Shown piece by piece: positions 3,925 to 41,174 of a DNA stretch of 64,000 bases. Source of the DNA: Vicinamibacterales bacterium (lineage in GTDB: Bacteria; Acidobacteriota; Vicinamibacteria; Vicinamibacterales; UBA823). Every line of letters begins with the position of its first letter. Position 1 is the first letter of the stretch. The notes beneath the pieces were generated by a model. That model ran no database searches and was not told where the DNA came from. It was given only the letters and a program-made list of their open reading frames with translations. The translations under genes and the position numbers were made by a program. Location: positions 788,558 to 852,557 of the forward strand of contig CBDANA010000009.1 in the NCBI GenBank assembly GCA_965197385.1, written 5' to 3'.

Positions 3925-4581
3925 AACTTCCCGGTCGGCGGACGGAGCGTCTCGCGTCGCGAGCTGATCAAGCGCGCGCTCATAGCCGGCGCGGCGGCGA
4001 CCATGTCGGCCGAGACACTCGCGCACGCCGGGTCCGACCAGACGCCGTTCGACACGTTCGACACACTGTCACGGGCCGAAGCCGAAACCCTCCAGGCCAT
4101 CGTGGCCCGTCTCATCCCAACCGACGAGCGCGGCCCCGGCGCGAGCGAAGCCCGTGCGGAGCACTACATCGACCAGGCGCTGGCCGGCGCCCTGTCCGCG
4201 TCACGCCAGGCCTACGCCGACGGCCTGGCCGGCGTCGACGCCTACGCGCGAACGTCGAAAGGCGCCCTCTTCGCGTCGCTTCCAGCCGACGATCAGGACG
4301 CCGTCCTGCGCGAGATGGAGGCCAACACGGCAACCGGCTTCAGCCCGGACGCTTCGACCTTCTTCGAGCTGCTCCGCACCCATACGATCGAAGGCACCTT
4401 CGGCGATCCGTATTACGGCGGCAACACGAATTTCGTCGGGTGGGACCTGATTGGGTATCCAGGGGTCCGCGTGGTCGTCACGCCTCGCCACCAGCGGCTC
4501 GACATCGCGCCGCGGCCGGTCCACCGGTCGGCCTACGATTTTGGACGATTCGTGAAGGAAGTGCTGAACCGTGGCCGTTGA
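3916..4581 (+). CDS. gluconate 2-dehydrogenase subunit 3-family protein (Tat signal)
   Basis: Twin-arginine motif SRRELIKRALIAGAAA. Small subunit positioned directly upstream of, and overlapping, a GMC flavoprotein gene, which is the usual pairing. Confidence 0.7.
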   Translation: MAGNFPVGGRSVSRRELIKRALIAGAAATMSAETLAHAGSDQTPFDTFDTLSRAEAETLQAIVARLIPTDERGPGASEARAEHYIDQALAGALSASRQAYADGLAGVDAYARTSKGALFASLPADDQDAVLREMEANTATGFSPDASTFFELLRTHTIEGTFGDPYYGGNTNFVGWDLIGYPGVRVVVTPRHQRLDIAPRPVHRSAYDFGRFVKEVLNRGR

Positions 4582-6280
4582 CCTGCCGAAGACGGACGTG
4601 GTGATTGTCGGACTGGGTGCCGTCGGCGGCGTGGCCGCGTTGCCGCTCACGCGGGCTGGCCGCGATGTCATCGGGCTCGAAGCGGGCGCATGGATGCGCC
4701 GCCGCGACTTCGCCCCGGACGAGCTGCGCAACGGCGCCAGGGGATGGCCCCACGCGGTTCAGAAGGCGAACCGGGAGATTCCCGTGCACCGGCCGAACGC
4801 ATCAGCACCGGATTCCCCCCGGCTGACCGTCCATCCGATGATGAACGCGGTCGGCGGCACATCCCTCCACTATTGGGGCCAGAGCTGGCGCTTGAACCCC
4901 TGGGACTTCAAGGTCGTGAGCGAGACGACCCGGCGGTACGGCGCGGCGCGGATCCCCACTGGCTCGACGGTCGAAGACTGGCCGTTCGGGCTCAAGGAGC
5001 TCGAGCCGTTCTACGACCTGGTCGAGTACGAAGTGGGCGTCTCGGGTCAGGCCGGCAATATCAACGGCGCGATCGACCGGCGGGGCAACGTCTTCGAAGG
5101 CCCCCGCCGGCGTGACTATCCGATGCCGCCGCTCCGGGGCACGGGCTTCACCGAGCTCATGACGGACGCGGCACGAAGTCTCGACTGGCATCCGTTTCCC
5201 GGCCCGGCGGCCGTCAATTCCCAGCCGTACCAGAACCGAGCAGCGTGCGTCTATCACGGATTCTGCAGCCGCGGGGGCTGCCATGTCGACGCGAAGAGCT
5301 CCACCGCTGTGTCGACGATCCCGATGGCGCAGGAGACCGGGCACCTATCGGTCATCACGCATGCCCATGTCATCTCGGTCGGCGTCGATGGCAACGGTCG
5401 CGTCACCGGGGTGACCTATCGTAAAAACGGTGAAACCTACGTTCAGCCTGCCGAGGTGGTATTGCTCGGCACCTACACCTACGAGAACGTACGGACCCTC
5501 CTTCTCTCGATGTCGCGAGCCTACCCGGACGGCCTCTCGAACAACCACGGGCAGGTCGGCCGCCATTACTTCAGCCACAACATGGGGGCGGGCGTCCTCG
5601 CGCTCTTCCCGTCGAACCTGAACACGTGGTACGGCTTGCCCGCACAGGGCGTCGCGGTGGATGACTGGGCCGACGACAATTTCGACCACACCGATCTCGA
5701 CTTCATCGGGGGCGGCAACCTCTGGATCTACACCGAGCGACAACCGATCTCGGCGGCCAGGATGAACACATTTGGCCGCGCCCCGCGATGGGGCTCGGCC
5801 TGGAAACGGTTCGTCACGGAGAACGCCGACCGCTGGACCGGTACCTACATCCAGAAGACGACGCTGCCGTACGAAGACAACTACCTGGACCTGCATCCCA
5901 CCGTGAAGGACCCGCTCGGCTTCCCGGTCTGCCGGATCACCGCCGACTTCAAGGACAACGAGCGCAAAGTCGCCGCCTTCATGCAGGACAAGATGGTGCG
6001 GTGGTTCGAGGAGGCCGGCGCCATCGCCACGGTCCGGCAGTCCATCGGCACCATGCGGGCCACCCACGCCTACGGCGGGACGCGCATGGGTGACAATCCC
6101 GAGACGAACGTCGTCGACCGGTGGGGTTTCTCGCACGAGGCACCGAATCTGGGTGTTCTCGGCGCCTCGGTCATGGGCACGAGCGGCGCCCATAATCCCA
6201 CGTTGACGGCGCAGGCGCTCGCGTGGCGGACAGCCGACCATCTGGTCGAGAACTGGCGCGCGATCGCTAGCAGCCCGTAG
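4571..6280 (+). CDS. GMC-family FAD oxidoreductase (gluconate 2-dehydrogenase alpha-like)
   Basis: N-terminal Rossmann motif DVVIVGLGAVGG..LEAG, C-terminal GMC region HAYGGTRMG..VVD..GASVMGTSGAHNPTLT. The last residues and the stop lie inside repeat 6267-6345. Confidence 0.85.
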   Translation: MAVDLPKTDVVIVGLGAVGGVAALPLTRAGRDVIGLEAGAWMRRRDFAPDELRNGARGWPHAVQKANREIPVHRPNASAPDSPRLTVHPMMNAVGGTSLHYWGQSWRLNPWDFKVVSETTRRYGAARIPTGSTVEDWPFGLKELEPFYDLVEYEVGVSGQAGNINGAIDRRGNVFEGPRRRDYPMPPLRGTGFTELMTDAARSLDWHPFPGPAAVNSQPYQNRAACVYHGFCSRGGCHVDAKSSTAVSTIPMAQETGHLSVITHAHVISVGVDGNGRVTGVTYRKNGETYVQPAEVVLLGTYTYENVRTLLLSMSRAYPDGLSNNHGQVGRHYFSHNMGAGVLALFPSNLNTWYGLPAQGVAVDDWADDNFDHTDLDFIGGGNLWIYTERQPISAARMNTFGRAPRWGSAWKRFVTENADRWTGTYIQKTTLPYEDNYLDLHPTVKDPLGFPVCRITADFKDNERKVAAFMQDKMVRWFEEAGAIATVRQSIGTMRATHAYGGTRMGDNPETNVVDRWGFSHEAPNLGVLGASVMGTSGAHNPTLTAQALAWRTADHLVENWRAIASSP

Positions 6281-6345
6281 TGAAAATCCCGCGTGGCACC
6301 GAGGCAAGATCGACACGCAGCGTTACCCATGACGGCCGCCGCCCG
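6267..6345. repeat. short CTAG-anchored palindromic repeat (REPIN/MITE-like), copy A
   Basis: Left arm CTAGCAGCCCGTAGTGAAAATCC, degenerate right arm GTTACCCATGACGGCCGCCGC. Same head as the copies at 14698, 18401, 29589 and 38239. Confidence 0.45.
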
Positions 6346-6410: not shown

Positions 6411-7079
6411 ATGACCACCATGACCATGCTCCGAACTCTCGTCGTTGCGACCGCGGTCGTGACCCTTGCGATCCTGGCGTCCGTCGGCGCGACCGCGCAG
6501 GACAACGCCATGACCTTCTTCATCACCAGCGCCGGCCCGGGCGACGGGGCGAACCTCGGCGGGATCGACGGCGCTGACGCGCACTGCCAGATGCTCGCGG
6601 AAGCAGCCGGCAGCACGGGCCACACGTGGCGCGCCTATCTCAGCCAGAGTGCCGCCGGTGGCGGAATGGCGGCCGACGCCCGGGATCGGATCGGTAGCGG
6701 CCCCTGGTACAACGCAAACGCCGTCGAGGTGGCGTCCAGCGTGGCCGACCTACACAGCGCCAACAACGAGCTGAGCAAGGCGAACAGCATCAGCGAGAAG
6801 GGCGACGTCATCAATGGCCGCGGGGACAGCCCGAACATGCACGACGTCCTGACCGGGTCGCAGCCAGACGGCACCGCCTTCACCAACGGCGAGGATCACA
6901 CCTGCAGCAACTGGACGAGCAGCGGCGCCGGCAGCGCCCAGGTCGGCCACCACGACCGGCAGGGTGGCGGTGACAACCCGACCTCGTGGAATGCCGCGCA
7001 CGGCAGCCGGGGGTGCAGTCAGGACGACCTGATCGGTACCGGCGGCAACGGCCTGTATTACTGCTTCGCGACGAACTGA
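6411..7079 (+). CDS. secreted endostatin-like / C-type-lectin-fold (DUF1554-like) protein
   Basis: Signal peptide [80 protein letters not shown] and LYYCFATN align by eye with the collagen XVIII endostatin motifs [46 protein letters not shown] and YIVLCIEN. The start is chosen at the signal peptide (ORF opens at 6369). Confidence 0.6.
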   Translation: [222 protein letters not shown]

Positions 7080-9218: not shown

Positions 9219-9383
9219 ATGCCCAAGTGTCTCGAGTGCGACGCTGACATCCGCCTGAAGGCCGACGTCGAGTCCGGCGAGATCGTGGATTGCCCGGACT
9301 GCGGTACCGAGTTCGAGGTACGATCCGTCGATCCACCGCAGCTCGACTACGCACCCAAGGAAGAAGAGGACTGGGGCGAATAA
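9219..9383 (+). CDS. lysW: LysW/ArgW amino-group carrier protein
   Basis: 54 aa. Zinc-ribbon CxxC...CPDC ([24 protein letters not shown]) and the acidic tail ending EEEDWGE, which is diagnostic of LysW. Confidence 0.85.
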
Positions 9384-9388
9384 GGATC

Positions 9389-10249
9389 ATGCGCCTGGGC
9401 GTCCTCTGCTCCATCGTCCGCACCGAGGAAAAGCTGATCTTCCAGGCGCTCCGCGCCCGGGGGGTGCCGTTCGAGAAGATCGACGACCGGCAGCTCTCCC
9501 TTGATCTGCAGGTCCGCCAGCTGCCCTGGGATGTCGTCCTCGAGCGCGCGGTCAACCACGCGCGCGCCCTGCACACGTTGAAGATCCTGAACGACCGCGG
9601 CGTCCCGACGATCAACACCTGGGACGTCGCCAACGTCTGCGGCGACAAGGTGCTGACGACGAACGCGCTGGTGCGGCACGACGTGCCGACGCCAAGAACG
9701 CGGATCGCCTACACACCGGAGTCGGCTCTCGCCACGATCGAGGACATGGGCTATCCCATCGTCCTCAAACCGGCTGTCGGCTCCTGGGGCCGGCTGATCG
9801 CGCGGGTCAACGACCGGCAAGCCGCGGAAGCGCTGCTCGAGCACAAGCAGATCCTGGGGTCGTACCACCACTCGATCTTTTACATCCAGGAGTACATCGA
9901 GAAGGGGGGACGGGACATTCGCGCGTTTGTCGTCGGCGGCAAGACGATCTGCGCCATCTATCGGATGAGCGAGCACTGGATCACGAACACCGCCCGGGGC
10001 GCTACCACCGCCAACTGTCCAGTTACTGACGAGCTGGACGCCGTCTGCCTCGGGGCGACCAAGGCGGTCGGCGGCGGCGTCCTGGCGATCGACGTCTTCG
10101 AAACCGACCAGGGCCTCCTGGTGAACGAGGTGAACTACACGATGGAGTTCCGCAACAGCATCGGCGTCACCGGCGTGCCGATTCACGAGCGCATCGTGGA
10201 CTACGTGCTGTCCATCGGCCAGGCGCCGGCGACGATAGCCTCCCGATGA
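9389..10249 (+). CDS. lysX: RimK-type ATP-grasp ligase LysX/ArgX
   Basis: ATP-grasp motifs ([35 protein letters not shown]). Located directly after lysW. Confidence 0.8.
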
Positions 10250-11283
10250 AGGTCAACATTCTCGGGGGGTCTGGGTACGTTGGCGGCGAGCTGCTGCGGC
10301 TCCTGCTCGACCACCCCAAGGTGACCGTCGCGCAGGTCACGTCCGAGCGACTCGCGGGGAAACTCGTCGCGACGGCGCACCCGAACCTCAGGCGGCGAAC
10401 CGACCTGCGCTTCAGCCGCCTGGAGGACCTGGACCCATGCGATCTGCTCTTCGCCGCGCTGCCGCACGGGAGCTTCGCCCAGAAATTTGGGGAGCTGCGG
10501 TCCGTGGCGCCACGCATCATTGACATGAGCGCCGATTTCCGCCTGCGCTCGCCTGCGGCCTACCGACGCTGGTACGGCCACGACCACCCGAATCCGGCGG
10601 CACTCGCCGACTTCGTGTACGGCATCCCCGAGCTGCACCGGGCCGACATCGCGGGGGCAGCCTACGTGACCGGCGCCGGCTGCCTGGCGACGACGGCCAT
10701 CTTGGCGCTTCGCCCGCTCTTCCTCGAAGGGGTGGTCGCCAACCGCGAGGTCTATATCGAGGCGAAGGTCGGCTCGTCGGCAGCGGGCAACAAGGAAAAC
10801 GCGTCCTCACATCACCCGGAGCGCAGCGGCGCCGTCCGATCGTTCCAGCCGACCGGCCATCGGCACACCGGTGAGATCGTGCAGGAGCTCTCCGACCACG
10901 GCGCGCCGACGGTCCATTTTTCTGCCACAGCGATCGAGCTCGTGCGCGGTGTGCTCGTGACCGCCCACGTGCGTCTTACGCAGGATCTGGACACCAAGGC
11001 GCTCTGGAAGCTGTTTCGGGCCGCGCACGGTCACGAGCCCTTTATCCGAATCGTGAAGGAGGCGCGCGGCGTCTTCCGCTATCCGGAACCGAAGATCTTG
11101 GCCGGCTCCAACTACTGCGACGTCGGCTTCGAGCGCGATGCCGACGCCGACCGGCTGGTCGTCCTCGCCGCTCTCGACAATCTCATGAAGGGCGCCGCCG
11201 GCAACGGCGTGCAAGCGATGAACGTCATGGCCAGCTGGGACGAGCGCACGGGTCTGGACTTCCCCGGACTGCACCCGGTCTGA
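10246..11283 (+). CDS. lysY: [LysW]-aminoadipate/glutamate semialdehyde-forming reductase (ArgC family)
   Basis: [20 protein letters not shown], and the active-site region [11 protein letters not shown] is typical of ArgC/LysY. Confidence 0.8.
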
Positions 11284-11291
11284 TCGCGCCG

Positions 11292-12116
11292 ATGCTAGTC
11301 GTCAAAGTCGGCGGCGGCCGCGGCATTGGCTACGAGCCGGTGTGCGACGATCTCGCAGCGCTGCACGCGCGAGGCTGCCCGTGGCTCTTGGTCCACGGCG
11401 GGTCGCACGAGACGAACGAGCTGGCCAAGGCGCTGGGGCATCCCCCGCGGTTCGTTACGTCGGCCTCGGGGTACGAGAGCCGTTACACCGATCGCCGGAC
11501 GCTCGAAATCTTCGAGATGGCGTACTGCGGCAAGGTGAATAAGCGTATCGTCGAGCTATTGCAGCGCCGGGGTGTCCCTGCCATCGGGTTGGCCGGCCTG
11601 GACGGCCGCCTGCTGTCGGGCCCCCGGAAGGCGACGCTCACCATCGTCGAAAGCGGAAAGAAGAAGGTCCTCCGGGACGATCACACCGGCAAGATCACGT
11701 CGGTCAACACCGAGCTCATCCGAGTACTCTATGATGCCGGCTACGTGCTCGCGGTCTGCCCGCCCGCCATCAGCGACGACCATGTCGCCGTCAACGTGGA
11801 TGGCGACCGCGCGGCAGCCCGGCTGGCCGACGCGGTGGGTGCGGACGACCTCGTGATTCTCTCCAATGTTCCTGGCCTGCTGCGCGATCCTGATGACGAG
11901 TCGTCCCTCATCCGCCATATCGTATCGGATGCCCTGGACGGATACGTCGACTACGCCAAAGGGCGGATGAGAAAGAAGCTAATGGCGGTCAAGGAGGCGC
12001 TCGCCGGCGGCGTCCGACGGATCGTGCTGGGGGATGCCCGGCTCGACCAGCCCGTGACGGAAGCGCTCGCCGGCAGAGGAACGGTCGTTGCAGCCGCAGG
12101 ACATCATCGCGCGTGA
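11292..12116 (+). CDS. lysZ: [LysW]-aminoadipate/glutamate kinase (ArgB family)
   Basis: Amino-acid kinase fold: VVKVGGG, LVHGGS, AVNVDGDRAAA. Confidence 0.8.
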   Translation: MLVVKVGGGRGIGYEPVCDDLAALHARGCPWLLVHGGSHETNELAKALGHPPRFVTSASGYESRYTDRRTLEIFEMAYCGKVNKRIVELLQRRGVPAIGLAGLDGRLLSGPRKATLTIVESGKKKVLRDDHTGKITSVNTELIRVLYDAGYVLAVCPPAISDDHVAVNVDGDRAAARLADAVGADDLVILSNVPGLLRDPDDESSLIRHIVSDALDGYVDYAKGRMRKKLMAVKEALAGGVRRIVLGDARLDQPVTEALAGRGTVVAAAGHHRA

Positions 12117-13251
12117 AGACCGGCATTCGTCCGGCCTGTACCACAAGCGTCCGATCGCCCTCGTCCGGGGCAAGGGCGCGCGGGTGTGGGACGCTGACGG
12201 CCGCGAGTACATCGACTGCACCGCCGGCATCGGCGTCGCCGTCCTCGGCCACGCCCACCCGGTCGTCGTCGAGGCCCTGGCCGCGCAGGCGGGTCGGCTG
12301 ATCACGGTGCACGAACTGTTCTACAACGACCGGCGCGCGGCCCTGCTCGAGCGGCTGCACGCGGTCACGCCGCCCTCGCTCGACCGATTCTTCCTCAGCA
12401 ACTCCGGCGCCGAGGCGAACGAGGCGGCCATCAAGTTCGCGCGGGCGGCGACCGGCCGACCGGAAATCGTGTCCGCGATGCGCGGCTACCACGGCAAGAC
12501 GCTCGGCGCACTGAGCGCGACGTGGGGCAAGAACTACCGCGCGCCGTTCGAACCGCTCGTGCCCGGCTTCCGGACCATCCCGTTCAACCGACCCGAGGCG
12601 GTCGCGGTCGCTGTCACGGACGCGACCGCGGCGGTGATCGTCGAGGTCGTCCAGGGCGAAGGCGGCATTCGACCGGCGACCACGGAGTACTTGCGCGCCA
12701 TCCGCGACGCCTGCACCGAGCGCGGCACGCTGCTCATCATCGATGAGGTCCAGACCGGCTTCGGCCGCACGGGGACACTGTTCGCGTTCGAGCACCACGA
12801 CGTGGTCCCAGACATCCTGACACTCGCCAAGAGTGTGGCGGGCGGCATCCCAATGGGGGTGACGGCATTCGGCGACACCGTCGGCCAGTTGGCCAAATTG
12901 AGCCACACGACGACCTTCGGGGGCAACCCGCTGGCCTGCGCCGTGGCCGATCGGGTCATCGCGCACATCGTGGAGACCGATCTGCCGGCCCGCGCGGCCA
13001 CAGCCGGCCAGCGGACGATGGATGCCATCCGCGCCTTCGGCAGCCCGCACGTCCGGGACATCCGCGGCCTGGGTCTCATGATTGGCATCGAGCTGAAGCG
13101 CCCGGCCGCCAAGACAGCCCGGGCGTTGATGGATGAGGGCGTTCTGGCGCTGCTGGCCGGCTCGACGGTCCTCCGGCTACTGCCGCCGCTCGTCATCGAA
13201 GCGGACGAGCTCGACACAGTGGTCGCCGCCCTGGGCAGGGTGCTCGCGTGA
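12088..13251 (+). CDS. lysJ: class III aminotransferase (ArgD/LysJ family)
   Basis: Motifs GIGVAVLGHAHP, IVEVVQGEGG, LIIDEVQTGFGRTG, LAKSVAGGIPMG. Confidence 0.8.
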   Translation: MQPQDIIAREDRHSSGLYHKRPIALVRGKGARVWDADGREYIDCTAGIGVAVLGHAHPVVVEALAAQAGRLITVHELFYNDRRAALLERLHAVTPPSLDRFFLSNSGAEANEAAIKFARAATGRPEIVSAMRGYHGKTLGALSATWGKNYRAPFEPLVPGFRTIPFNRPEAVAVAVTDATAAVIVEVVQGEGGIRPATTEYLRAIRDACTERGTLLIIDEVQTGFGRTGTLFAFEHHDVVPDILTLAKSVAGGIPMGVTAFGDTVGQLAKLSHTTTFGGNPLACAVADRVIAHIVETDLPARAATAGQRTMDAIRAFGSPHVRDIRGLGLMIGIELKRPAAKTARALMDEGVLALLAGSTVLRLLPPLVIEADELDTVVAALGRVLA

Positions 13252-14297
13252 CCGATCGGGATGCCATCGACCTGCTGCGTGATCTTTGCGCCGTGTACTC
13301 GCCGTCAGGCGAGGAGGTCGGCGCAGTGTCGTTGCTGGTGGAGCGAGCCAACCGGGCCGGCCTCCACGCATTCTCTGATGACGTCGGGAACTTCGTCGCC
13401 GAGCGCGGCACTGGCCCGACCACGATCGTCCTGCTGGGTCACGTGGACACCGTGCCGAGCTTCATCACCCCGTCGGTGGCCGGCCGGTCGCTGCATGCCC
13501 GGGGCGCCGTCGATGCCAAGGGACCGCTTACCGCGTTCGTCGCGGCGGCCTCCCATGCCGCGATTCCGGACGACGTCCGGGTGGTCGTCATCGGCGCCGT
13601 CGAGGAGGAGGCGCCAACGTCGAAAGGGGCCCACTTCGTCCGCGATCGATATGCGCCCTCGGCGGTCGTTATCGGTGAGCCGAGCGGTGTCTCGGGCATC
13701 ACCCTCGGGTACAAGGGGCGCATCGGCCTGACGCTTGTCGCGCAGCAGGCGCACGCGCACACGGCCGCCGAAGACAGGAGCATCGCCGCGCGTGCCGCTG
13801 ACTGGTGGACCCGACTCGAGGACTACTGCGAGCGTCGCAACCACGCACGCACCGTCTTCGAACGACTCGACCCACACCTGGCAGAGTTTCAGACGTCGAC
13901 CGATGGATTCACCGACCGCGCCGACCTGCGCGGCAGTGTACGCCTCCCGCTTGACGCAGCTGTCGATGACCTGCGGGCTCGATTCGAGGAACTGGCCTCC
14001 GGCTGGGGCTCGGTGTCACTCGACGGATTCGTTCCGCCGTTCAAAGCGGGCCGCAAGAACCGACTGGTCGCCGCCTTCATTCGAGCGATCCGGCAAGCCG
14101 GCCTGACCCCCAGCTTCAAGCTGAAAACCGGCACGTCTGACATGAACGTCGTCGGCCCGGTCTGGCGGTGCCCGATTGTCGCCTATGGCCCGGGCGACTC
14201 GACCCTCGACCACACCCCTGAGGAACACGTGGACCTCGACGACTACCTGCTCGCCGTCCGCGTCTTGACACACGTCCTCGGCGACCGGCTTCAGTGA
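13248..14297 (+). CDS. lysK: M20-family deacylase ([LysW]-lysine/ornithine hydrolase, ArgE/LysK family)
   Basis: Motifs LLGHVDTVP, ARGAVDAKG, EEEAPTSKGA. It is the last gene of the lysW cluster and has overlapping start/stop codons. Confidence 0.7.
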   Translation: MTDRDAIDLLRDLCAVYSPSGEEVGAVSLLVERANRAGLHAFSDDVGNFVAERGTGPTTIVLLGHVDTVPSFITPSVAGRSLHARGAVDAKGPLTAFVAAASHAAIPDDVRVVVIGAVEEEAPTSKGAHFVRDRYAPSAVVIGEPSGVSGITLGYKGRIGLTLVAQQAHAHTAAEDRSIAARAADWWTRLEDYCERRNHARTVFERLDPHLAEFQTSTDGFTDRADLRGSVRLPLDAAVDDLRARFEELASGWGSVSLDGFVPPFKAGRKNRLVAAFIRAIRQAGLTPSFKLKTGTSDMNVVGPVWRCPIVAYGPGDSTLDHTPEEHVDLDDYLLAVRVLTHVLGDRLQ

Positions 14298-14338: not shown

Positions 14339-14668
14339 TTAGGAGCCGGCGACCAGCATGATGGCACCGGTGCCGATCAGCGTCACGGCGCCGGCGAAGA
14401 GTGTGAAGTCCGCAATTTCAGAACGCTCACCGCGCAGCTCGATCATCTCGTCGATCTTCTCGGGTCCGCGCGTGAGAAAGAACCCGAAGAGACCGACGCC
14501 CACCACCAGCGCGACGATGGCCCCGGCCTTGCGCCTGCCGCCGGACGCCGACGGCGGGCCATTGTCCGCGCCAGACTCTTGACCGTTCGGCGTCGCGCGC
14601 GCGGCTGCCGCCGCCGCGGCGTCGCGAACCCATCCGGCCGGCTCGGCGAGCAGGCGGCGTACCCGCAC
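14339..14668 (-). CDS. hypothetical small membrane protein
   Basis: C-terminal third of track ORF 14339..15034: two TM helices (AIVALVVGVGLFGFFL, FTLFAGAVTLIGTGAIMLVAG). The start is placed at an in-frame GTG below the MITE, because the upstream part of the ORF is repeat sequence. Confidence 0.3.
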   Translation of the reverse strand: MRVRRLLAEPAGWVRDAAAAAAARATPNGQESGADNGPPSASGGRRKAGAIVALVVGVGLFGFFLTRGPEKIDEMIELRGERSEIADFTLFAGAVTLIGTGAIMLVAGS

Positions 14669-14697
14669 CAGATCGGCGCTTGACGCAGGCGTGACGC

Positions 14698-14887
14698 CTA
14701 GCGGCCCGTGGTGAAAGTCCAGCGACGCACCGAGACCCCGCTGAACCAACGCCGCGGTCGCCCAGCGCAAGGCGCGACGAGGGAAAATACCGGCTGTATG
14801 TGGCCCATCTTGGACAATGCCCAGCGCCGCCGAAGCCGAGATGCAGCGCCGGTCGCATGCAGCTGGACTTTCACCACGGGCTGCTAG
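14698..14887. mobile_element. non-autonomous MITE-like element, copy B (CTAG...CTAG)
   Basis: TIRs are CTAGCGGCCCGTGGTGAAAGTCCAGC and GCTGGACTTTCACCACGGGCTGCTAG. The internal core is shared with the copies at 29589 and 38239. Confidence 0.7.
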
Positions 14888-15030
14888 CGAGGCCCAGCGC
14901 GCCGGCAACGGCCCCTGCGCGGCGACCGTGCTGCCCCACGCGACCAGCCCGCTCAACGTCAGCACCAGGACTCGGGACGCGCGGCCATGCAGACACGGCC
15001 TCTCCGCTCGCGGCATCATCACGTGCACGC

Positions 15031-16779
15031 TCAATCCGAAGCGGTAGCCTCGTACACGATCCGCCCGCCCAGGATCGTCGTGAGCACCGCGGTCTCGAGG
15101 ATCTCCGGTGCCGCGATCGTCATGATGTCCCGAGACAGCACGACCATGTCGGCCAGCTTACCGACCTCCAGCGATCCTTTCAAATCTTCTTCGAAGGCGC
15201 CGTACGCGGCATCGATCGTGAACATCCGGAGCGCTTCCTCGCGGGTGACGAGCTGCTCCGGGTGCCACGGCGCCGCGTTTCCCGGATCATGGTCCTGCCG
15301 CGTCACCGCCGAGTAGATCCCCCAGAGCGGCCTGACCGACTCGACCGGCGCGTCCGATCCTCCGGGCATCCGGACGCCCGAATCGAGGAGGGTGCGCCAG
15401 GCGTAGGCAAACGTCGTCCGCTGCTCACCAACTCGATCGACGACCCAGTGCATGTCGCTGGTGGCGTGCGTCGGTTGCATCGACGGCAGGACGCCGAGCT
15501 CGGCGAACCGGCCGACATCGTCCGGGTGCAGAATCTGCGCGTGCTCAATACGCAGCCGGTGATCCTCGACGCTCGATTCCTCGATGGCGCGCTCGAACGC
15601 ATCGAGTACGACGCGATTGGCGGCGTCACCGATTGCATGGGTTGCCGTCTGGAAGCCGGCCTCCAGCCCGCGCAGGATCGTGTCGTAGATCTCGTCCTCG
15701 CTCAGCCGGAACAGCCCGGTGTTGCCCGGGTCGTCCGCATACGGCTCCAGCAGCGCCGCACCGCGCGAGCCCATCGCCCCGTCGATGCTCATCTTGATGC
15801 CGCGGATCGTCAGCCGGTTGTCGTATAGGCCGACCTGCGGCCCCTGCTCGAGGAAGTAATCCAGCTCGTCGTAGGTGTGCTGCTGCTCCGCTTCGTTCGC
15901 CGGCCAGCGGACGAACTCGTAGAGGCGAAAGTCGAAGTCGTCGTCCTCGAGCATCTCGAGATAGACCTCGATCTCCTCCCGGGAGCCACCCGCCTCGTGG
16001 ACACCGGTCAAGCCGGAGGCCAACGCTTCCTCGATCGCCAGTTGCACCGCCTGCCGGCGCTGCGCGCGTGACGGTGGCGGAATCTCCCGCTCGGCGAGAC
16101 GGAAGCCGTTGTCGATCAGCGTGCCGGTCGGATCGCCGGCGGCGTCACGAATGATCTGTCCACCCGCCGGATCCAGTGTGTCGCGGGTGATGCTGGCCGC
16201 CATGAGCGCCGCGCTGTTGACCCAGGCCGCGTGACCGTCGATCCGTTTGAGGAACACCGGGTTGTCCGGCGACACGCCGTCCAAGTCTGCCTTTGTGGGG
16301 AACTCGCGCACCTACCAGGTGTTCTGATCCCAGCCCCGTCCCTCGATCCAGTCACCTGGCGGCGACGCGGCCGCACGTCGCCCGACCTCCGCGACGATCT
16401 CTTCCTTGCTCATCCCCCGCGCATTGAGAATCTGCCGCTGGCGGCCGAGGTTCGTGAAGTGCACGTGCGCATCGATCATCCCCGGCACAACCGTCTTCCC
16501 GTCGAGCCGGATGACCTGGGTCTCGGGGCCGACCAGCGCCTCGACCTCCGCGTCGGAGCCCACGGCAGCAATCCGATCGCCCCGCACGGCGATCGCCTGG
16601 GCGGCGGGTGCGCCGTTCGCCATCGTCACGATATTGCCGCCGGTCAGCACTACATCGGCCGGATTCTCCGGTACCGACGGTCCGCATGCGGCCCCGACAA
16701 TGATGATGAGGAGGACCGCGGCGCTTGTGAGAAACACGGCTGGGACCGAAGGACGGCGCAGAAGAAAGGCCGTGCGCAT
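15031..16779 (-). pseudogene. YtcJ-like amidohydrolase lipoprotein with an in-frame TAG
   Basis: Track ORFs 16312..16884 and 15031..16311 are contiguous in one frame: ...GRGWDQNTW-TAG-VREFPTKADLD. The intact paralog at 18851 reads [20 protein letters not shown] across this point. It has a lipobox (IVGAAC) and the MIDAHVHF metal motif. Confidence 0.8.
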
Positions 16780-18400: not shown

Positions 18401-18470
18401 CTAGCAGCCCATGGCGAAAGCTCAATGAGCCACCTGTAGCACGCCCAGTATATCGCCGGGCCAGGCACGA
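18401..18470. repeat. short CTAG-anchored palindromic repeat, copy G
   Basis: Left arm CTAGCAGCCCATGGCGAAAGCTC, degenerate complementary arm TATCGCCGGGCCAGGC. It sits between two gene ends. Confidence 0.45.
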
Positions 18471-23963: not shown

Positions 23964-25266
23964 CTAGCAGGCTACTGAAAAAGTCCATGGAATGGGATCG
24001 ACAGATCGATCCCGGCGTACTCCCATGCTCCCAATATTGCTGAAGGGAGCCACCTCATGCGCGGACACGATGAGCAGACCCATCACATGTTCAGTTACCG
24101 GTCGCCGGAACAGCGCGTGCCGGCCGATCCTCCGCTCCGCGCGGTCCGCGCGCTGACGGATCACGCGCTGAAGACGATGTCGCGCAGGTTCGCCGGCCTG
24201 TACGCCAAGACGGGACGTCCGTCGATCCCGCCTGAGCCATTGTTGCGGGCCCTGTTGCTGCAGGTGCTGTACACGATCCGGAGCGAACGGCTGCTGCTGG
24301 AAGAGCTCAACGACAACCTGCTGTTCCGCTGGTTCGTCGGCTTGCATATGGACGACCCGGTCTGGCATCCCACGACGTTTACCAAGAATCGTGACCGGCT
24401 GCTGGCGGGGGATGGCGCGGCCGCCTTCGTTGATGCGGTCCAGGCCCACGCCCGGGCGGCCGGTCTGCTCTCGGACGAGCATTTCACGGTGGACGGGACG
24501 CAGTTGGAAGCCTGGGCCAGCCTGAAGAGCTTCCGATGCCGGGACGCCGCGCCGCGCGCGCCCCCCGATGACCCCGGGAATCCCACGGTCGACTTCCACG
24601 GCGAGCGGCGGCGCAACGACACGCACCAGTCGACGACTGATCCGGCGGCGATGCTGCATCGGAAGGGCCAAGGGAAGGAGGCGAAGCTGGCGTCTCTGGG
24701 CCACGTGCTGTTGGATAATCGGCAGGGGCTCGTCGCCAACGTCTGTGCGACCCACGCGACGGGGACCGCCGAACGCGAGGCGGCGGCACTGTTGCTGGAG
24801 GCCAGCGCGCCGCCGGGCAGCACGGTCGGAGCAGACAAGGGCTACGATGTGGCGAGCTTCGTCGCCGATGTCCGCGTCCGGGACGTCACGCCCCACGTGG
24901 CGCAGAAGGTCCGCTGGCGGGCGATTGATGGTCGGCCCACCCGGCATGCGGGTTCTCACGTGAGTCAGCGGAAACGAAAACTCGTGGAACAGGTCTTTGG
25001 GTGGAGGCAGACCGTCGGTGGTTTGCGCAAGCTCCGGCCTCGCGGCGTCCCACTCGTCGAGTGGCAGCTCACTTTCGCCGCCACGGCCTATAACTTGGTC
25101 CGCCTGCGGAATCTGGAGGCGACGTGTCCCTGCTCGCCGGCCGCGCGTGTCGCCGGCCCCCTCATCGGGGTCAGCGCACACCCGTGCGCACGGTCGTCGG
25201 GCGGTCGTCACCCGCATGATGCTTAAGAAAACAGCCCGATACCCGGGTTCTTCAGCAGCCTGCTAG
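23964..25266 (+). mobile_element. IS5-family insertion sequence, copy 1 (CTAG at both ends)
   Basis: 1.3 kb. IRs are CTAGCAGGCTACTGAAAAAGTCC and GGGTTCTTCAGCAGCCTGCTAG. Near-identical inverted copy at 49049-50351. Confidence 0.9.
24057..25226 (+). CDS. IS5-family DDE transposase
   Basis: 389 aa. N-terminal DUF772-like [43 protein letters not shown] and a DDE region (VDGTQLEA..., GADKGYD). Confidence 0.9.
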   Translation: MRGHDEQTHHMFSYRSPEQRVPADPPLRAVRALTDHALKTMSRRFAGLYAKTGRPSIPPEPLLRALLLQVLYTIRSERLLLEELNDNLLFRWFVGLHMDDPVWHPTTFTKNRDRLLAGDGAAAFVDAVQAHARAAGLLSDEHFTVDGTQLEAWASLKSFRCRDAAPRAPPDDPGNPTVDFHGERRRNDTHQSTTDPAAMLHRKGQGKEAKLASLGHVLLDNRQGLVANVCATHATGTAEREAAALLLEASAPPGSTVGADKGYDVASFVADVRVRDVTPHVAQKVRWRAIDGRPTRHAGSHVSQRKRKLVEQVFGWRQTVGGLRKLRPRGVPLVEWQLTFAATAYNLVRLRNLEATCPCSPAARVAGPLIGVSAHPCARSSGGRHPHDA

Positions 25267-25367: not shown

Positions 25368-26186
25368 ATGACGACTCGTAACCCTCAACCGACCCCACGT
25401 TTCGATCTGGGAAGCCAACCGGCCGTCAGCCGCCGGGCGTTTCTCAGCCTCGGGGCGGCGTTGACCGGCCCGACGGCACTCACCGCTCGCCGTCGGCCTG
25501 GCGCTGCGCCCGTGCCCAGTGCCGCGCTGCCCGACAGGCAGCCGGATTCTTCCGAGCAGCTTCGCGGTGTGCCGGCCACGCTGCTGTGCGATGCCTTGAC
25601 AAGGCTCGGCTTCGATCGGACGCGCTTCACGCTCTCACGGGAGATCCGCCCCACCGTGCGCACGCCGGGCACGATGATGGGCCCGGCGGTCACGACGAAA
25701 TACGAAACGGGGGCCGACGGAACGCTCGACGACATTCGCCGGTTCGTGTTCGATCCGGTGGACGCGGCGGGACCCGGGGCGGTCTGGGTCATCGAGAGCG
25801 GCACCGACGACGTCGTGAGCATGCTGGGCGAGCTGATCGCGGTGGCCTGCCGTCGGACCGGCCTGGCCGGAATCGTCACCGACGGCGGGTGCCGGGACAT
25901 TGACGCGATTGCCGCCATCGGCCTGCCGCTGTTCTCGAAGGGAACGGTCCTCTACGGTCCGGGCTCAATCATCCGCCCGGTCGCGGCCGACGTGCCGGTG
26001 AGATGCGGTGGCGTGGAGGTGCGGCCGGGGGACCTCGTGGCCGCGGATGCCGATGGCGCGCTCGTCGTGCCTCGCGAGGCGGTCGGCGACGTGGCGACGC
26101 TGGTCGCCGAGCTGCGGGCTAAGGAGGATCGGACGCGAGCGGCGCTCGCCCGCGGCGATACGCTACGAGACGCGTACGTGTTCTAG
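25368..26186 (+). CDS. RraA-family (RraA / HMG-aldolase-like) protein with an N-terminal Tat-type signal
   Basis: SRRAFLSLGAALTG twin-arginine signal followed by an RraA-like core (GELIAVACRRTGLAGIVTDGGCRD, VRPGDLVAADADGALVVP). Confidence 0.65.
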   Translation: MTTRNPQPTPRFDLGSQPAVSRRAFLSLGAALTGPTALTARRRPGAAPVPSAALPDRQPDSSEQLRGVPATLLCDALTRLGFDRTRFTLSREIRPTVRTPGTMMGPAVTTKYETGADGTLDDIRRFVFDPVDAAGPGAVWVIESGTDDVVSMLGELIAVACRRTGLAGIVTDGGCRDIDAIAAIGLPLFSKGTVLYGPGSIIRPVAADVPVRCGGVEVRPGDLVAADADGALVVPREAVGDVATLVAELRAKEDRTRAALARGDTLRDAYVF

Positions 26187-26222
26187 TGTCCGGTGGTGAA
26201 GGTCTCGACACATCGAGGGCTA
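26183..26222. repeat. solo/short copy of the CTAG repeat head between convergent genes
   Basis: CTAGTGTCCGGTGGTGAAGGTCTCGACACATCGAGGGCTA. Its two ends coincide with the TAG stops of the RraA-like gene (+) and the SSF gene (-). Confidence 0.4.
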
Positions 26223-29588: not shown

Positions 29589-29786
29589 CTAGCAGCCCGT
29601 GGTGAACGTCCCGCGTCGCATCGAAGCCCCTCTAAGGTTAAAACCGAAGCCGCGGTCGACCTGAGGAAGGTGCGAGGAGGAAGCATACCGGCAGTATTCG
29701 ACCCCGCTGATCAGAAGCCGAGCGCCGTCCCTGGCGGGATGCATCGGCGGGGGAATGCGGCCGTATTTATGACAAGGGCCACTAAG
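29589..29786. mobile_element. MITE-like element, copy C
   Basis: Left TIR CTAGCAGCCCGTGGTGAACGTCC, degenerate right end ...GACAAGGGCCACTAAG. Internal blocks are shared with copies B and F (…GAGGAGGAAGCATACCGGCAGTAT…, GGGATGCATCGGCGGGGGAATGCGGCC). Confidence 0.6.
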
Positions 29787-29822
29787 ACAGGGTGGACGCG
29801 GCGCGCCAGACGGAGCGCTCGC

Positions 29823-30212
29823 TCAGTCCGCGCAGGCAAACTGGGTGACGTCGATTGTGCCGGTGAGGAGCGCCGCCGCCGGCACCTCCGACAGCAGAAT
29901 CTGATCGCCGCCGACGCGGTCGGCGTCGGCGAGACGTGCCCAGTATTGCTGGGGTGCCGGCCTGAAGAGTCGACGCAGCGCGTCGGCCGCCACCGCCGCC
30001 TGCACTTGATCCCTGATCGTGTCGAACAGGTCGGCGACCGCCCGATCGCGCGACCGGCCGGTGGTGACGAAGTCCATTTCCAGGCAGTGGGCCACCGGCT
30101 GACTGTCCTTCGTGTAGACCAACACGGTGAGCAAGGCACTGCGGCCATGTCCCCCCCTTTGGCTCCAGGCGAAGGCCCACGCGGGCTCTCTAGAGGTATC
30201 GACTGGCTGCAC
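29823..30212 (-). CDS. hypothetical protein (possible HicB-like fold)
   Basis: 129 aa. LTVLVYTKDSQPVAHCLEMDFVTTGRSRDRAVADLFDTIRDQV resembles HicB-type antitoxin N-domains. No partner toxin is seen. Confidence 0.35.
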   Translation of the reverse strand: MQPVDTSREPAWAFAWSQRGGHGRSALLTVLVYTKDSQPVAHCLEMDFVTTGRSRDRAVADLFDTIRDQVQAAVAADALRRLFRPAPQQYWARLADADRVGGDQILLSEVPAAALLTGTIDVTQFACAD

Positions 30213-30280
30213 CGAGGCTATAGTCGATTGCCGCTCGTATCACCCCCGGGTGGTAGACTCGTCTCGCGCTCACACCGCCC

Positions 30281-31834: not shown

Positions 31835-32011
31835 CTCGTGTCCTGTCCCAGTCGTTGGCAATATATCTGCCTGGCGGGGCTCCCGGCTTCAGCGGCGCTG
31901 GGCGTTGTCCACGATGGGTCACACATTCCCGATGGGCTCCCGGGTCGCGCCTTGCCAGCCTGGCGCCGCACTCCGGGATAGATGCCGCGAATCACTGGGA
32001 CAGGACACGAG
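31835..32011. repeat. 177-bp element bounded by a perfect 18-bp inverted repeat
   Basis: CTCGTGTCCTGTCCCAGT (31835-31852) is the exact reverse complement of ACTGGGACAGGACACGAG (31994-32011). It begins one nt after the upstream stop codon. Confidence 0.6.
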
Positions 32012-34335: not shown

Positions 34336-34524
34336 TCTACTTGTCCGAGCGCTGCCCCCGAGCATGTCGCTCGACGGGTATCTCACAGGCGTTCGGCTCG
34401 GAGGATCGTGGCCCACCGCCGCGCGTTCCTTCGATCGGATTGCTAATGACGATCGCCACGCGTCGCTATCCCCTGATCACGGAGGCACGATGACCTCCCG
34501 CCGACGCCTGGCAGCGGCAACACC

Positions 34525-34545
34525 GGACATTCACCACGGGCTACG
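34525..34545. repeat. degenerate right terminus of the CTAG repeat family, copy D
   Basis: GGACATTCACCACGGGCTACG, with CTAC in place of CTAG, 13 nt before ATG 34558. The left half of the element is not clearly recognisable. Confidence 0.4.
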
Positions 34546-35726: not shown

Positions 35727-35794
35727 GTCAGCCGCCCGTCGTGAACGTCGCGCATCGCCCCGAGGCGTCACGTCGGGTTCTCACCACGGGCTGC
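35727..35794. repeat. short inverted pair of the CTAG-family repeat head (REPIN-like hairpin), copy E
   Basis: GTCAGCCGCCCGTCGTGAACGTC ... GTTCTCACCACGGGCTGC form complementary arms between convergent genes. The right arm encodes the last codons and the stop of rnc. Confidence 0.6.
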
Positions 35795-36743
35795 CCCCGC
35801 GTCGTAGTCGCTGCAGCGCCAGGGCGGCGGCGTGCTGCTCCGCCTCTTTCTTGCTGCGGCCCTTCGCCGTCGCAACCACCTCCTGGCCGACCGTCACGCC
35901 GATCTCGAAGATCTTCGCATGGTCCGGGCCACGTTCGCCGATCACGTGGTACGCCGGCAGGGGCTGCACGTGGGCCTGCGCCCACTCCTGCAGCGCCGAC
36001 TTGGCATCGGCATCGAATCCGGCCGGGCGCCGGCCCATCTGGACCTCGCCTAGGCACTCGAGGAATTCCCGTTCGATGAATGCCCGGGCCGCGTCGATAC
36101 CGCCATCCAGGTAGATCGCGGCGATCACCGCTTCATAGGCGTCGGCCAGCAACCCGGACTTCGACCGCCCCCCAGAGCGCTCCTCACCCTTACCGAGCAC
36201 CAGGTGCGCCCCCAGCCCCAGCGCACGCGCACGCTCGGAAAGCGTGACCGCCGACACGAGGGTCGCCTTCAGCTTCGACTTGCCGCCTTCGTCCTGGTCC
36301 GGGCATTCGCGGTACAGCAGATCGGCGATGACGAAGCCCAGCACGGCATCTCCGAGAAACTCCATCGACTCGTTGTCGACGACACCACCGCTCGGATCCT
36401 CGTGCACCCGCGACCGATGCGTCAGCGCGTCCTCCAGCACCCCCCGGTTCGTGAAGCGATAGCCGAGCGCTGCCTCGAGACGCGCCTCGTCAGCCGGCGG
36501 CCCGTCGCCCGCACCGGCGGCGGCTCGTGACGCGTCGAGAATCTCGCGCGCCTGCGCCACGTCACCAGCCGCAACCATGACGAGTACCGTCAACTGTGGA
36601 TCCCCGCGCAGTGAGGCCAACCGTCCGAGCCGGTCGGTCGAGATGACCGCCTGGATGCCGTGACTGCGCAGCAGCGACTGCACCACGCTCGCCTCGCCTT
36701 CGGAGGCGGTCGCCAACGCGATGGCCAGGTCGTCCGTGCTCAC
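35781..36743 (-). CDS. rnc: ribonuclease III with an ~90-aa N-terminal extension
   Basis: RNase III signature NESMEFLGDAVLG and a C-terminal dsRBD (DAKSALQEWAQ..GPDHAKIF..GRSKKEAEQHAA). The GTG start overlaps the upstream TGA (GTGA). Confidence 0.85.
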   Translation of the reverse strand: MSTDDLAIALATASEGEASVVQSLLRSHGIQAVISTDRLGRLASLRGDPQLTVLVMVAAGDVAQAREILDASRAAAGAGDGPPADEARLEAALGYRFTNRGVLEDALTHRSRVHEDPSGGVVDNESMEFLGDAVLGFVIADLLYRECPDQDEGGKSKLKATLVSAVTLSERARALGLGAHLVLGKGEERSGGRSKSGLLADAYEAVIAAIYLDGGIDAARAFIEREFLECLGEVQMGRRPAGFDADAKSALQEWAQAHVQPLPAYHVIGERGPDHAKIFEIGVTVGQEVVATAKGRSKKEAEQHAAALALQRLRRGGSPW

Positions 36744-38157
36744 GCCGGCGCGACCGCCACTGGTCCGTGTGAGTCGGCCGCGGGAGGCAGGCCCCCCACC
36801 TTGACGAGAATCATCGTCATGTCGTCGTGCTGCTCGGCGCCGTCCACGAACGCATCGACCTCGAGCAGGACGTGCTGCTGCAATTCTTGTGACGAGTGGT
36901 GGCCGTGCTGCTCCAGCGCCTGGCTCAGGCGGGCCTCGCCGAAGAAATCGGACGCGCCGTTCATCGCTTCGGTCACGCCGTCGGTATAGAGCGCAAACAC
37001 ATCGCCCGGCCCGACCTGGAGCGTGCTCTCCTGGAGCAGTGCCTGGAACTTCTCGGCGATCCCCTCGAACTGCAGCCCGAGCGGGCACCCGAGATGCGAG
37101 TGAAAATGTCGCTGATGCGAATCTGGATGGCGGTGCTGACCTTGGCGCTCGAACCGGTAGCCCAGTTCGTGTAATCGAAGAACGTGACCCAGTCGAGGGT
37201 ATACCCGGCGTCCCGCGCCGACGGCACCGTCTGGACCGCCGCCTCCGACCCGAACGCTCGGCCGACCTCCAGCTCCACAATCTGACCGTCTGCCGTGACA
37301 ACGGCGGTGCGACCCAGAGTAATCCCGGTCGTCTCGAGTAGCCGCTCCAGCGTCTGTCCGGCGACCGGCAGGTCCACGACGACGGCGTAGTCCGCCATGG
37401 GATCGACCGGCAGCCCGACCGCCCGCGCGACCAGATCGGTCCGATCGGTCCCAGGAAGGGCAAACGCGAGCAGCCCGCCGAACCCGGTCGGCTGGATCCA
37501 GGCCGGCAGCGCCTCGGGCGGCGATAGATGCCGCCACGGGCCGACGACGAGGGGCACAGCGTCCGCCGCAGGCGAACCCGACCGGGACACCAGCGCGAGT
37601 GAAACGCCTAGGTGACGTCCCACCGTGGCGGTGAGCTTCCCGGCCAGCACCTCCTGTGCTGCCGCTTGACCGCCTCGCCGCTCCAGCTCGCCCGCTGACG
37701 TCTCGGCCAGAACGACCGCCTCCTCGATCAGATCGTCGAATCCGCTGCGCACGAAGAACGAGCTGACGTTCAGGAATATCAGCACGCCGGCGAGCAGAAA
37801 GAACGCCATCACGAGCAACACCGGCACGAAGCCGATGAAGACGTACGACACGATCAGCTTTCGTCGGACGCGTCATAGCAATCGACGCCGGATCGCGCCG
37901 AAGGCCCGGGCGAACACCACGAGGCCTACGACCAGCAGGATCGCGCTGGCGAGGCCATCAACAACGCGGAAGACGGACCAATTCGACAGGGCGCCGAGCG
38001 GTGCCAGAACCTTGACCACGCCCGCCGCCAGCACGGCGCGGCCGGACCAGGTACGCACCAGCCAGGTCACCCCGCGGCGGATCGTATGCGCCGACAGGCG
38101 CGGCTCCGCGCTGGCTTGCTCATGTGGGAGCGGGTCGCGGAGTAAATCTCGGACCAT
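36740..38157 (-). pseudogene. membrane sensor / PP2C (SpoIIE-type) phosphatase, disrupted
   Basis: In-frame TGA: ...FGAIRRRLL-TGA-RVRRKLIVSYVFIGFVPVLLV. A frame change occurs near 37090. Only the C-terminal half of a SpoIIE domain remains (PLGLQFEG...GPGDVFALYTDGVTEA...DDMTMILVKV). Confidence 0.7.
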
Positions 38158-38238
38158 GCAGTTTGAAAATGAAATATATCAGATGTATCGTAACCTGCCG
38201 TCGCTGGAGTCCGCGCCCCGCGACCAACGCACGATCTG

Positions 38239-38417
38239 CTAGCCGCCCGTGGTGAACGTCTGGTCTTGCAGCGGGGGCCCCCGACCATGGAAGCTGCGGT
38301 CCGCCCGAGCAAGGCGCGGCGAGGGAGAATGTTGGGAATACTTGAACGAGAAGCCACGCCGCCAGTGGGGATGCATCGCCGGCCGAATGCCGCCAGACGT
38401 CCACCACGGCCGGCGAG
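38239..38417. mobile_element. MITE-like element, copy F
   Basis: TIRs are CTAGCCGCCCGTGGTGAACGTCTGG and CCAGACGTCCACCACGGCCGGCGAG. The core GCAAGGCGCGGCGAGGGAGAAT is shared with copy B. It ends 9 nt before GTG 38427. Confidence 0.7.
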
Positions 38418-38426
38418 GATCTCCAC

Positions 38427-41097: not shown

Positions 41098-41174
<77 letters not shown>

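Follow-up and report, generated by a model that had tools for sequence, protein, structure and literature searches.

The question raised by the 64,000-nucleotide stretch of Vicinamibacterales DNA analysed here (contig CBDANA010000009.1, positions 788,558 to 852,557; hereafter the window) is what its short, gene-less repeats flanked by CTAG are, what moves them, and which part of them is conserved. [quoted passage not shown] According to the present analysis, B, C, F and several fragments are very probably decayed copies of a non-autonomous DDE transposon, that is a MITE, with ends of the IS5/IS1182 type of insertion sequence (IS) and a selected, strand-specific hairpin core. The covarying, strand-specific hairpin, with a core common to many phyla and to many classes of terminal inverted repeat (TIR), had not been seen in the initial annotation.

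All three full-length copies were recovered in their places. The end motif GCCCGTGGTGAAMGTC was found, with at most 3 mismatches, at 11 sites of the window (67% G+C) where 2.4 were expected, and none of 100 shuffled sequences reached 11. Aligned end to end, B, C and F show a mean column identity of 77% (65-72% pairwise), so that their relatedness extends over the interiors and is not limited to the head motif. The internal blocks quoted for them are all present; one, GCAAGGCGCGRCGAGGGARAAT, is the 5' half of the conserved core of the family, which lies at 14767-14780 in copy B (GCAAGGCGCGACGA) and at 38309-38322 in copy F. Window copies are 179-198 bp long and the standard form 166 bp (158 bp plus two 4-bp CTAG target duplications), with TIRs of 18-22 bp, in keeping with MITEs as small elements of less than about 300 bp with TIRs. 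The copies score 62 bits for B (32 on the minus strand), 76 bits for C (of which the covariance model does not recover the whole element) and 81 bits for F (35 on the minus strand), as compared with 150-190 bits for standard-length copies elsewhere. The window copies carry 13-32 extra bases and degenerate 3' core halves; copy C, with about 30 bp of additional interior, is the most decayed.

Mobility was examined in orthologous loci reached via homologues of the cysteine/methionine (Cys/Met) enzyme flanking copy F, at 99% (L117), 96% (L118) and 91% (L119-L121) identity. Copy F is present in L117 and absent from L119-L121, and L118 has an exact empty site with one CTAG, reading …gagctgCTAGaatctccacGTG where the window reads …gatctgCTAG, copy F and CGAGgatctccacGTG. 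Neither L118 nor L120 has an element at the place that corresponds to copy C. A further site, at 40207-40210, is empty in the window and in 80% outgroups, the window having 8 more bases (GATCACCG) than the outgroups; at this site a canonical copy (148 bits, 11780-11944) lies between the VTT-domain and CutA1 genes of L117, whose identity to the window is 98%, and L118 has a copy in the opposite orientation (11795-11950) with an extra end fragment. Empty and polymorphic sites, proposed initially as a check of the family, are thus present in close relatives. Elsewhere, two elements are bordered by CTAA…CTAA in direct repeat, and CTAA…TTAG was seen at none, from which it follows that the tetranucleotide is duplicated target (4 bp) lying outside the inverted repeat. 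The initial annotation had placed CTAG at the start of the TIR, which must be revised in view of these flanks and of the empty site in L118. The insertion target is YTAR, in nearly all cases CTAG, and its duplication leaves a direct repeat of 4 bp.

The window has few CTAG sites, 42 in all, where base composition would predict 193 and dinucleotide frequencies 73, and about 11 of the 42, a quarter or so, are ends of these IS or MITE elements. Other CTAG sites serve as gene stop codons (e.g. 3889, 17286, 27036 and 62248), and in a crude survey 15 of 54 elements abutted a TAG stop codon located in the duplication. Since CTAG is rare and often contains a TAG stop, many copies land directly after genes. 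As a separate observation at copy C, L117 lacks 672 bp at about 1092-1101 (window 29605-30276), starting 16 nt inside the left end of the element; a deletion next to the element or an artefact of the assembly could account for this.

An autonomous element with exactly these ends, for which a search had been suggested, was found outside the window. Nineteen long elements (1.44-1.54 kb) share the same 22-nt ends and encode proteins of 452-468 aa with DUF772 and DDE_Tnp_1 domains. Both ends of the MITE match the IS end adjoining the transposase start (the transposase-proximal type), so that the 18-22-bp MITE ends are both copies of the transposase-proximal end of this IS of the IS5/IS1182 superfamily. 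Since both ends are copies of the partner IS end, its transposase would be expected to cut and paste the gene-less element in trans. The partner transposase is 57% identical between a ‘delta proteobacterium’ and a Vicinamibacterales genome, and homologues about 50% identical are found on alphaproteobacterial plasmids and on one Solidesulfovibrio plasmid; that of the Sphingobium plasmid pCHQ1 (about 48% identical) belongs to an element with ends CAGGCCGTTGACGAAGTCGG, flanked by CTAA and CTAG.

The mobiliser could also be sought in the IS5-family element resident in the window in two copies (Table 1), as the initial annotation had considered plausible. This element is a bona fide IS5-family member (247 bits, NCBIfam cut-off 140), its ends agree with those of the MITE at 16-17 of 23 positions, as read from the sequences, including CTAGCAG…GTCC, and it likewise targets CTAG with a clean 4-bp duplication (L121 2710-4012 filled, CTAG…CTAG; L120 empty at about 6745, with a single CTAG). 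However, over 236 aa its transposase shows no more than 26% identity to those of the ISs with MITE-identical ends, and the latter occur in related Vicinamibacterales (loci L060 and L084, on the same chromosome as the MITE of L011). Six to seven mismatches in a 23-nt end are usually too many for cross-recognition. The class of transposase was thus correctly assigned from the outset; the resident copy is probably not the mobiliser, and this alternative was considered improbable. Independently of this, the resident-type IS of L121 landed inside an old MITE-like element.

Similarity of the interior to the ISs is limited to 22-29 nt in the window copies and to at most 52-60 nt in other copies, the latter only with the IS type carried twice in locus L020; the interior homology to subterminal parts of an IS that defines type I MITEs was not found. 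The interior, a module of about 120 nt, is not IS sequence; combined with the ends, it causes one strand to adopt a single rod-like hairpin. Each standard-length copy is predicted to fold alone in this manner. RNAalifold on a mixed MAFFT alignment of 41 sequences, in which subfamilies were misaligned, returned the terminal helix alone, and near-gapless subsets were used instead; element ends could not be defined from minimum-free-energy folds of fixed windows, in which pairing extended into the flanks. In the first subset (A3; 18 copies aligned with MAFFT, nearly gapless), 62 pairs were scored, with 89.9% of cells paired as against 29-45% when the partner was slid, and 29 pairs changed on both sides. 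In the second (A6; 26 elements of at least 10 TIR classes), the corresponding figures were 64 pairs, 88.0% as against 34-41%, and 51 pairs changed on both sides. For neither subset was any of 500 shuffles as good. G·U pairs exceed A·C mismatches (71 vs 23; 197 vs 71, about 3:1, in 49 elements aligned to the covariance model), two G·U positions are conserved in A6, and one strand scores about 100 bits above the other with the covariance model. The strand-specific scores and the G·U excess thus place the fold on one strand; neither a double-stranded palindrome nor a cruciform would account for this.

The apical core of this hairpin was defined as GCAAGGCGCGA-N-GA ... GA-N'-GAGCAACGC. It comprises a CAA bulge, GGCG/CGCC, a second CAA bulge, three tandem G·A pairs with covarying Watson-Crick pairs between them, a conserved G·U pair and a covarying stem-loop of 5-6 bp. 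The covariance model also retrieves elements with other ends (CCCGCATTTCTCACCACG, TGTCCTGAGTTGGAAGTTCG, GGACCCTGATCGACATAAGG, GGGTCCGCGCAAGAATAAG and, in the window, CTCGTGTCCTGTCCCAGT), which are flanked by CTAG or CTAA and have GCAAGGCGCGA-N-GA … GAGCAACGC at the same position. A metagenome scan for the core alone (22 specified bases) returned at least 120 stretches, and 123 distinct cores were scored at the positions left free by the search pattern. Of these 123, 118 have N paired with N', the base on the 5' side of GAGCAACGC (G-C 60, C-G 49, A-T 6, T-A 3), and in 115 GA precedes N'. The arms 5'-GA-N-GA and 5'-GA-N'-GA enclose a covarying Watson-Crick pair between two G·A pairs in tandem, which may in our reading adopt tandem sheared geometry; next come a further two pairs that covary, a third layer (G·A/A·G), a G·U pair (68 of 123) and a covarying stem of 5 bp. 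The metagenome cores sit in rods with a median of 49 enclosing pairs. Under strict criteria, 18 elements around them fall into 8 end classes, the largest being CTAG-TGTCCCG…; no transposase homologue was found near any of the core-bearing metagenome copies listed. Compared by eye, neither a sigma-54 promoter nor a hammerhead, kink-turn, signal recognition particle domain IV or group II domain 5 fits the core.

Judged from these alignments, the core is under selection acting on a single-stranded nucleic acid, since it is kept while the stems change by compensation and the TIRs are swapped among at least 10 classes. If the elements were ordinary internal-deletion derivatives of an IS, palindromy and covariation would be a functionless by-product of their origin or of template-switch correction. 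That both ends are of the same (left) IS-end type agrees with such an origin, as do the few copies matching the L020 IS for up to 52-60 nt, and quasipalindrome correction is a known mutational process. The interiors, however, match none of the 19 ISs beyond the ends, and the core is not palindromic as DNA, its GA-N-GA blocks being direct repeats conserved in 115-118 of 123 cores. The roughly threefold excess of G·U over A·C and the recurrence of the same core inside at least 10 unrelated sets of TIRs and stems also argue against this explanation, to which we give a small probability, a shade below that of mobilisation by the resident IS.

The same strand specificity could point to hairpins that an HUH/Y1 enzyme moves in single-stranded DNA form, as happens with REP/RAYT or IS200/IS605; the resemblance to DDE IS ends would then be secondary. 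Conserved unpaired or non-canonical bases are found in REPs, IS608 ends and integron attC sites, and the tetranucleotide in the flanks is constant here. HUH elements, however, produce no target duplication, which is demonstrated here by the empty site and the CTAA…CTAA flanks. The ends are moreover identical to DDE IS ends over 22 nt, and at about 160 bp the elements, with their duplication, are far above the 20-40-bp hairpins without duplication that characterise REP/RAYT systems. This mode of movement was regarded as the least probable of all those considered.

The distribution of the DDE-type element was established by scanning for the 22-nt end pattern CTAGCNGCCCGTGGTGAANGTC, with one genome per species. 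More than 116 genome stretches have the exact pattern, mostly in Vicinamibacterales and other Acidobacteriota, and further hosts are Planctomycetota, Myxococcota, ‘delta’ metagenome-assembled genomes, Gemmatimonadales, Nitrospirales, Binatia, Rokubacteria and Limnocylindria. The check for further copies beyond the window was therefore passed, many being found in other genomes. Pairing of inverted ends gave 57 short elements, 31 of them at the length mode of 165-168 bp, and the 19 long ones (1436-1543 bp). Many end-pattern and core matches sit at contig ends, as matches of a multicopy repeat would be expected to do. Elements of different TIR classes may lie head to tail and share one CTAG (L031 5103-5275/5276-5442, L091 7639-7805/7806-7962 and L041 2136-2456), and in L060 an element at 5552-5718 adjoins the IS at 4062-5537 in the same arrangement, which suggests that the duplicated CTAG of one element is re-used as target by the next. 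In IMG/VR, two core matches (L244 3172-3223 and L245 5286-5337) come from one predicted viral contig of 16 kb (IMGVR_UViG_3300022695_000189), a possible vehicle for transfer between hosts. The family is a large and apparently unnamed group in many soil bacterial phyla, in which the core is kept and the ends vary.

Two window copies bear on host genes. Copy F is situated between a sigma-70-like promoter match (TTGAAA-17-TATCGT, 38163-38191) and a Cys/Met pyridoxal phosphate (PLP) enzyme gene, whose GTG start is 10 nt downstream of the copy, so that F is probably transcribed within the mRNA leader. A riboswitch preceding the Cys/Met gene was considered and rejected, the ortholog being without the element. 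As an additional observation, the change of the right duplicate from CTAG to CGAG creates GAGGA 8 nt before the GTG (38414-38422), where the relative with the empty site has CTAGAA; this may be a compensatory gain of a Shine-Dalgarno sequence after insertion.

The second is copy B. In an 80% relative (L247), a 154-aa gene lies between lysK and an amidohydrolase gene. The 231-aa minus-strand open reading frame (ORF) at 14339-15034 of the window matches this protein on both sides of copy B, its residues 15-49 corresponding to residues 1-35 of the relative and its residues 118-231 to 42-154. Copy B with one CTAG adds 186 bp, i.e. 62 codons, in frame, and the remaining lengths are equal in the window and L247. 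Given this in-frame match on both sides, the ORF reading through B is no artefact. The initial statements that all copies are intergenic and that the long ORFs through them are artefacts thus fail for B, which splits a conserved minus-strand gene in frame; the ORFs through C and F are indeed artefacts, as they have no Pfam hits and overlap real genes. No ORF through any copy has a Pfam hit, which agrees with the absence of coding capacity originally noted, and substitutions in the elements compensate pairing rather than being codon-like, with indels that are not multiples of three.

These contexts also bear on the possibility that the elements are not mobile, and are chromosomal structured-RNA genes or cis-regulatory leaders whose ‘TIRs’ form the closing helix. 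The strong covariation, the conserved G·U and G·A pairs, the strand asymmetry and the location of F, which follows a promoter match and occupies the leader of a methionine/cysteine-pathway gene, would all be accounted for in this way. The closing helix, however, is identical to the ends of transposase-bearing ISs, and there are single-CTAG empty sites and copy-number polymorphism between 96-98% relatives. Furthermore, the copies occur in unrelated contexts, in both orientations, in tandem arrays and in one case in a coding region, and the orthologous Cys/Met gene of relatives works without F. At the gathering score of its families, Rfam gave no match at the window copies, at 7 genome loci or at 20 metagenome loci, and only noise for one canonical copy searched at E up to 10 (best E 0.23). 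As an exclusive explanation this possibility is already contradicted, and it was considered very improbable.

Within a mobile element, the core could quite possibly function as a transcript-level structure, although we would put this at slightly under an even chance: it would be a protein-binding or processing site whenever a copy is transcribed, as for F in an mRNA leader. The pattern of G·U and G·A pairs would agree with such a role, as would what is known of MITEs. As the main alternative, held to be rather unlikely, the core might be a hairpin of single-stranded DNA bringing both ends into proximity for the transposase. It is also conceivable, on a tentative view given somewhat more credit than the DNA hairpin, that the unit under selection is the core and not the transposon, i.e. 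a G·A-rich, strand-specific motif of about 60-85 nt repeatedly re-fitted with the ends of different IS5-type elements.

Several results weigh against the interpretation of the repeats as MITEs with IS5/IS1182-type ends and a selected core, or against parts of it. The partner transposase misses both NCBIfam family cut-offs, its best model being IS1182 (NF033551; 157-173 bits, cut-off 270) and its second IS5 (NF033581; 80-89 bits, cut-off 140). There is no partner IS in the 64-kb window, so that mobilisation in this genome is only inferred, and a search of the loci examined recovered no cognate IS of the other TIR classes. The empty site of copy C in L118 is untidy and without CTAG, and the polymorphic site at 40207-40210 has untidy flanks compatible with excision, independent insertions or in-situ inversion. 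The window copies are old and, given their degenerate 3' core halves, probably inert, although the lineage itself has been active recently (L117). Quasipalindrome correction by template switching yields compensatory change in inverted repeats without selection; it would not give conserved G·A and G·U positions or the excess of G·U over A·C. Finally, an RNA-level role is weakened by the lack of an evident promoter inside the element and of an orientation bias relative to flanking genes (15 co-oriented and 13 anti-oriented, with a crude gene caller based on third-position G+C), the latter fitting poorly with an RNA dependent on host read-through.

Additional pieces of the family were located in the window using BLAST, a motif scan and the covariance model (Table 1). 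The right end assigned to a degenerate fourth copy is real (34526-34541, 1 mismatch), with no covariance-model match around it; the other three end pieces, the mini hairpin and the 177-bp relative had been overlooked. The site of the mini hairpin is old and occupied, and its decay has taken another course in relatives, L120 having an element (6690-6853, 45 bits) at the same place. The 177-bp relative is 79% identical to the interior of copy B and is recognised by the covariance model (30 bits, E 1.6e-4); its flank CTCG is probably derived from CTAG, and it is a member of the ‘CTAG-TGTCC…’ class, which is common in metagenomes.

Table 1. Copies, fragments and relatives of the element, and resident insertion sequences, in the 64,000-nt window.
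Feature	Position	Strand	Description
Copy B, 190 bp	14698-14887	+	CTAG at both ends (14698-14701, 14884-14887); perfect 19-bp TIRs
Copy C, 198 bp	29589-29786	+	Left end intact; right end degenerate (…GGGCCAC TAAG)
Copy F, 179 bp	38239-38417	+	Left CTAG intact; right duplicate mutated to CGAG
Solo left end	6267-6305	+	CTAG, TIR and about 16 nt of arm
Solo left end, degenerate	18401-18423	+	CTAGCAGCCCATGGCGAAAGCTC
Possible left-end remnant, weak	26183-26217	+	76% identity over 37 nt; CTAG start
Solo end (fourth copy of the initial annotation)	34514-34545	-	…GGACATTCACCACGGGCTAC; interior gone
Mini hairpin remnant, 68 bp	35728-35795	.	Both ends kept (CAGCCGCCCGTCGTGAACGTC … GTTCTCACCACGGGCTG); interior lost
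Relative with other ends, 177 bp	31835-32011	-	Perfect 18-bp TIR CTCGTGTCCTGTCCCAGT, unlike B, C and F; same core (GGCAAGGCGCGAC…GACAACGCC)
Resident IS5-family element, 1303 bp	23964-25266	+	389-aa transposase; ends CAGGCTGCTGAAAAAGTCC
Resident IS5-family element, second copy	49049-50351	-

The family was compared with known systems. The hairpin MITEs (Correia/CREE of Neisseria; ERIC and YPAL of enterobacteria and Yersinia; RUP; QMITE of Coxiella) are alike in their size of about 100-200 bp, their TIRs, their target duplication, the absence of a gene and the many copies; they are likewise found mostly at gene ends or in leaders, with transcripts predicted as one stable stem-loop and occasional in-frame intragenic copies. 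They differ from the present family, which is G+C-rich and not A+T-rich, has a CTAG target with a 4-bp duplication and not TA, and occurs in many phyla and not in one family. To our knowledge, a conserved apical core with tandem G·A pairs across different TIRs has not been reported for Correia, ERIC, YPAL, RUP or QMITE. The opposite orientations of the element in L117 and L118 possibly resemble the in-situ inversion reported for Correia elements, and transcripts of Correia and ERIC are processed by RNase III and RNase E (reviewed in PMC10969869). With blastn, a canonical copy (L109) matched neither phages nor any of 5,426 E. coli genomes, in which ERIC is present, and another (L011) matched no plasmid; no similarity to ERIC or Correia was thus detected in complete E. 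coli genomes, Neisseria not having been searched.

The partner IS resembles the IS5 group and IS1182 in its DUF772 and DDE_Tnp_1 domains and in its best NCBIfam models. The IS5 group targets YTAR with a 4-bp duplication, as demonstrated here for both the MITE and the resident IS. The MITE differs in lacking a transposase and in an interior unrelated to the IS, and the partner in remaining below both family cut-offs. Rickettsia palindromic elements are comparable to copy B as a palindromic repeat in frame in a gene (62 additional codons; one verified case); the ends, target and taxa of the family are unrelated to theirs, no similarity search having been made against Rickettsia. Integron attC sites and REP/BIME are alike in that structure is kept above sequence, one strand folds well and unpaired or non-canonical bases are conserved; they differ in being handled by tyrosine recombinases or HUH enzymes, with no target duplication, whereas the family has DDE IS ends and a 4-bp duplication. 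Searches of the literature by end-sequence string or keywords returned no description of the family, which, together with the Rfam results, agrees with its being undescribed as first stated. By kind it is a MITE; as far as checked, a cross-phylum core with exchangeable ends is unreported.

Other features of the window were noted. At 37082/37083, all five of five related loci carry about 757 bp that are absent from the window; the HAMP-SpoIIE gene of the relatives (719-724 aa) is truncated in the window, giving a long ORF fused with the RNase III gene (35781-37463). An ALIL pseudoknot, the frameshift signal of the IS3 family (87 bits), indicates another IS adjoining a tRNA gene (42115-42237 on the minus strand and 41098-41171 on the plus strand). 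In relatives, the region after this tRNA holds transposase genes of IS256 type (Transposase_mut) or IS3 type (rve) instead, and since different transposase genes follow the same tRNA, it looks like an insertion hot spot. A cluster for lysine/arginine biosynthesis of the LysW type (alpha-aminoadipate) is located at 9290-14297, with an amino-acid kinase, a semialdehyde dehydrogenase, an aminotransferase and an M20 deacylase, the last being named acetyl-lysine deacetylase or LysW-lysine carboxypeptidase in relatives.

For annotation, the elements create long false ORFs, break assemblies and take about a quarter of the rare CTAG sites in the window; as one copy splits a real gene in frame and another sits between a promoter and a start codon, host genes can be altered. 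The interiors of MITEs are usually seen as passive; here the interior is the part conserved across phyla and TIR classes, with RNA-like non-canonical pairs, so that these elements are a testable case for what a hitch-hiking transposon requires beyond its ends. The core, abundant in soil metagenomes, is a candidate structured motif of RNA or DNA not described so far. If the tentative view of the core as the unit under selection is true, it may be a new class of functional nucleic-acid motif, possibly an RNA that is bound by a conserved protein or processed, or a single-stranded-DNA handle for the transposition of very short elements, and it would have spread through many soil phyla as a modular parasite made of a core plus exchangeable ends.

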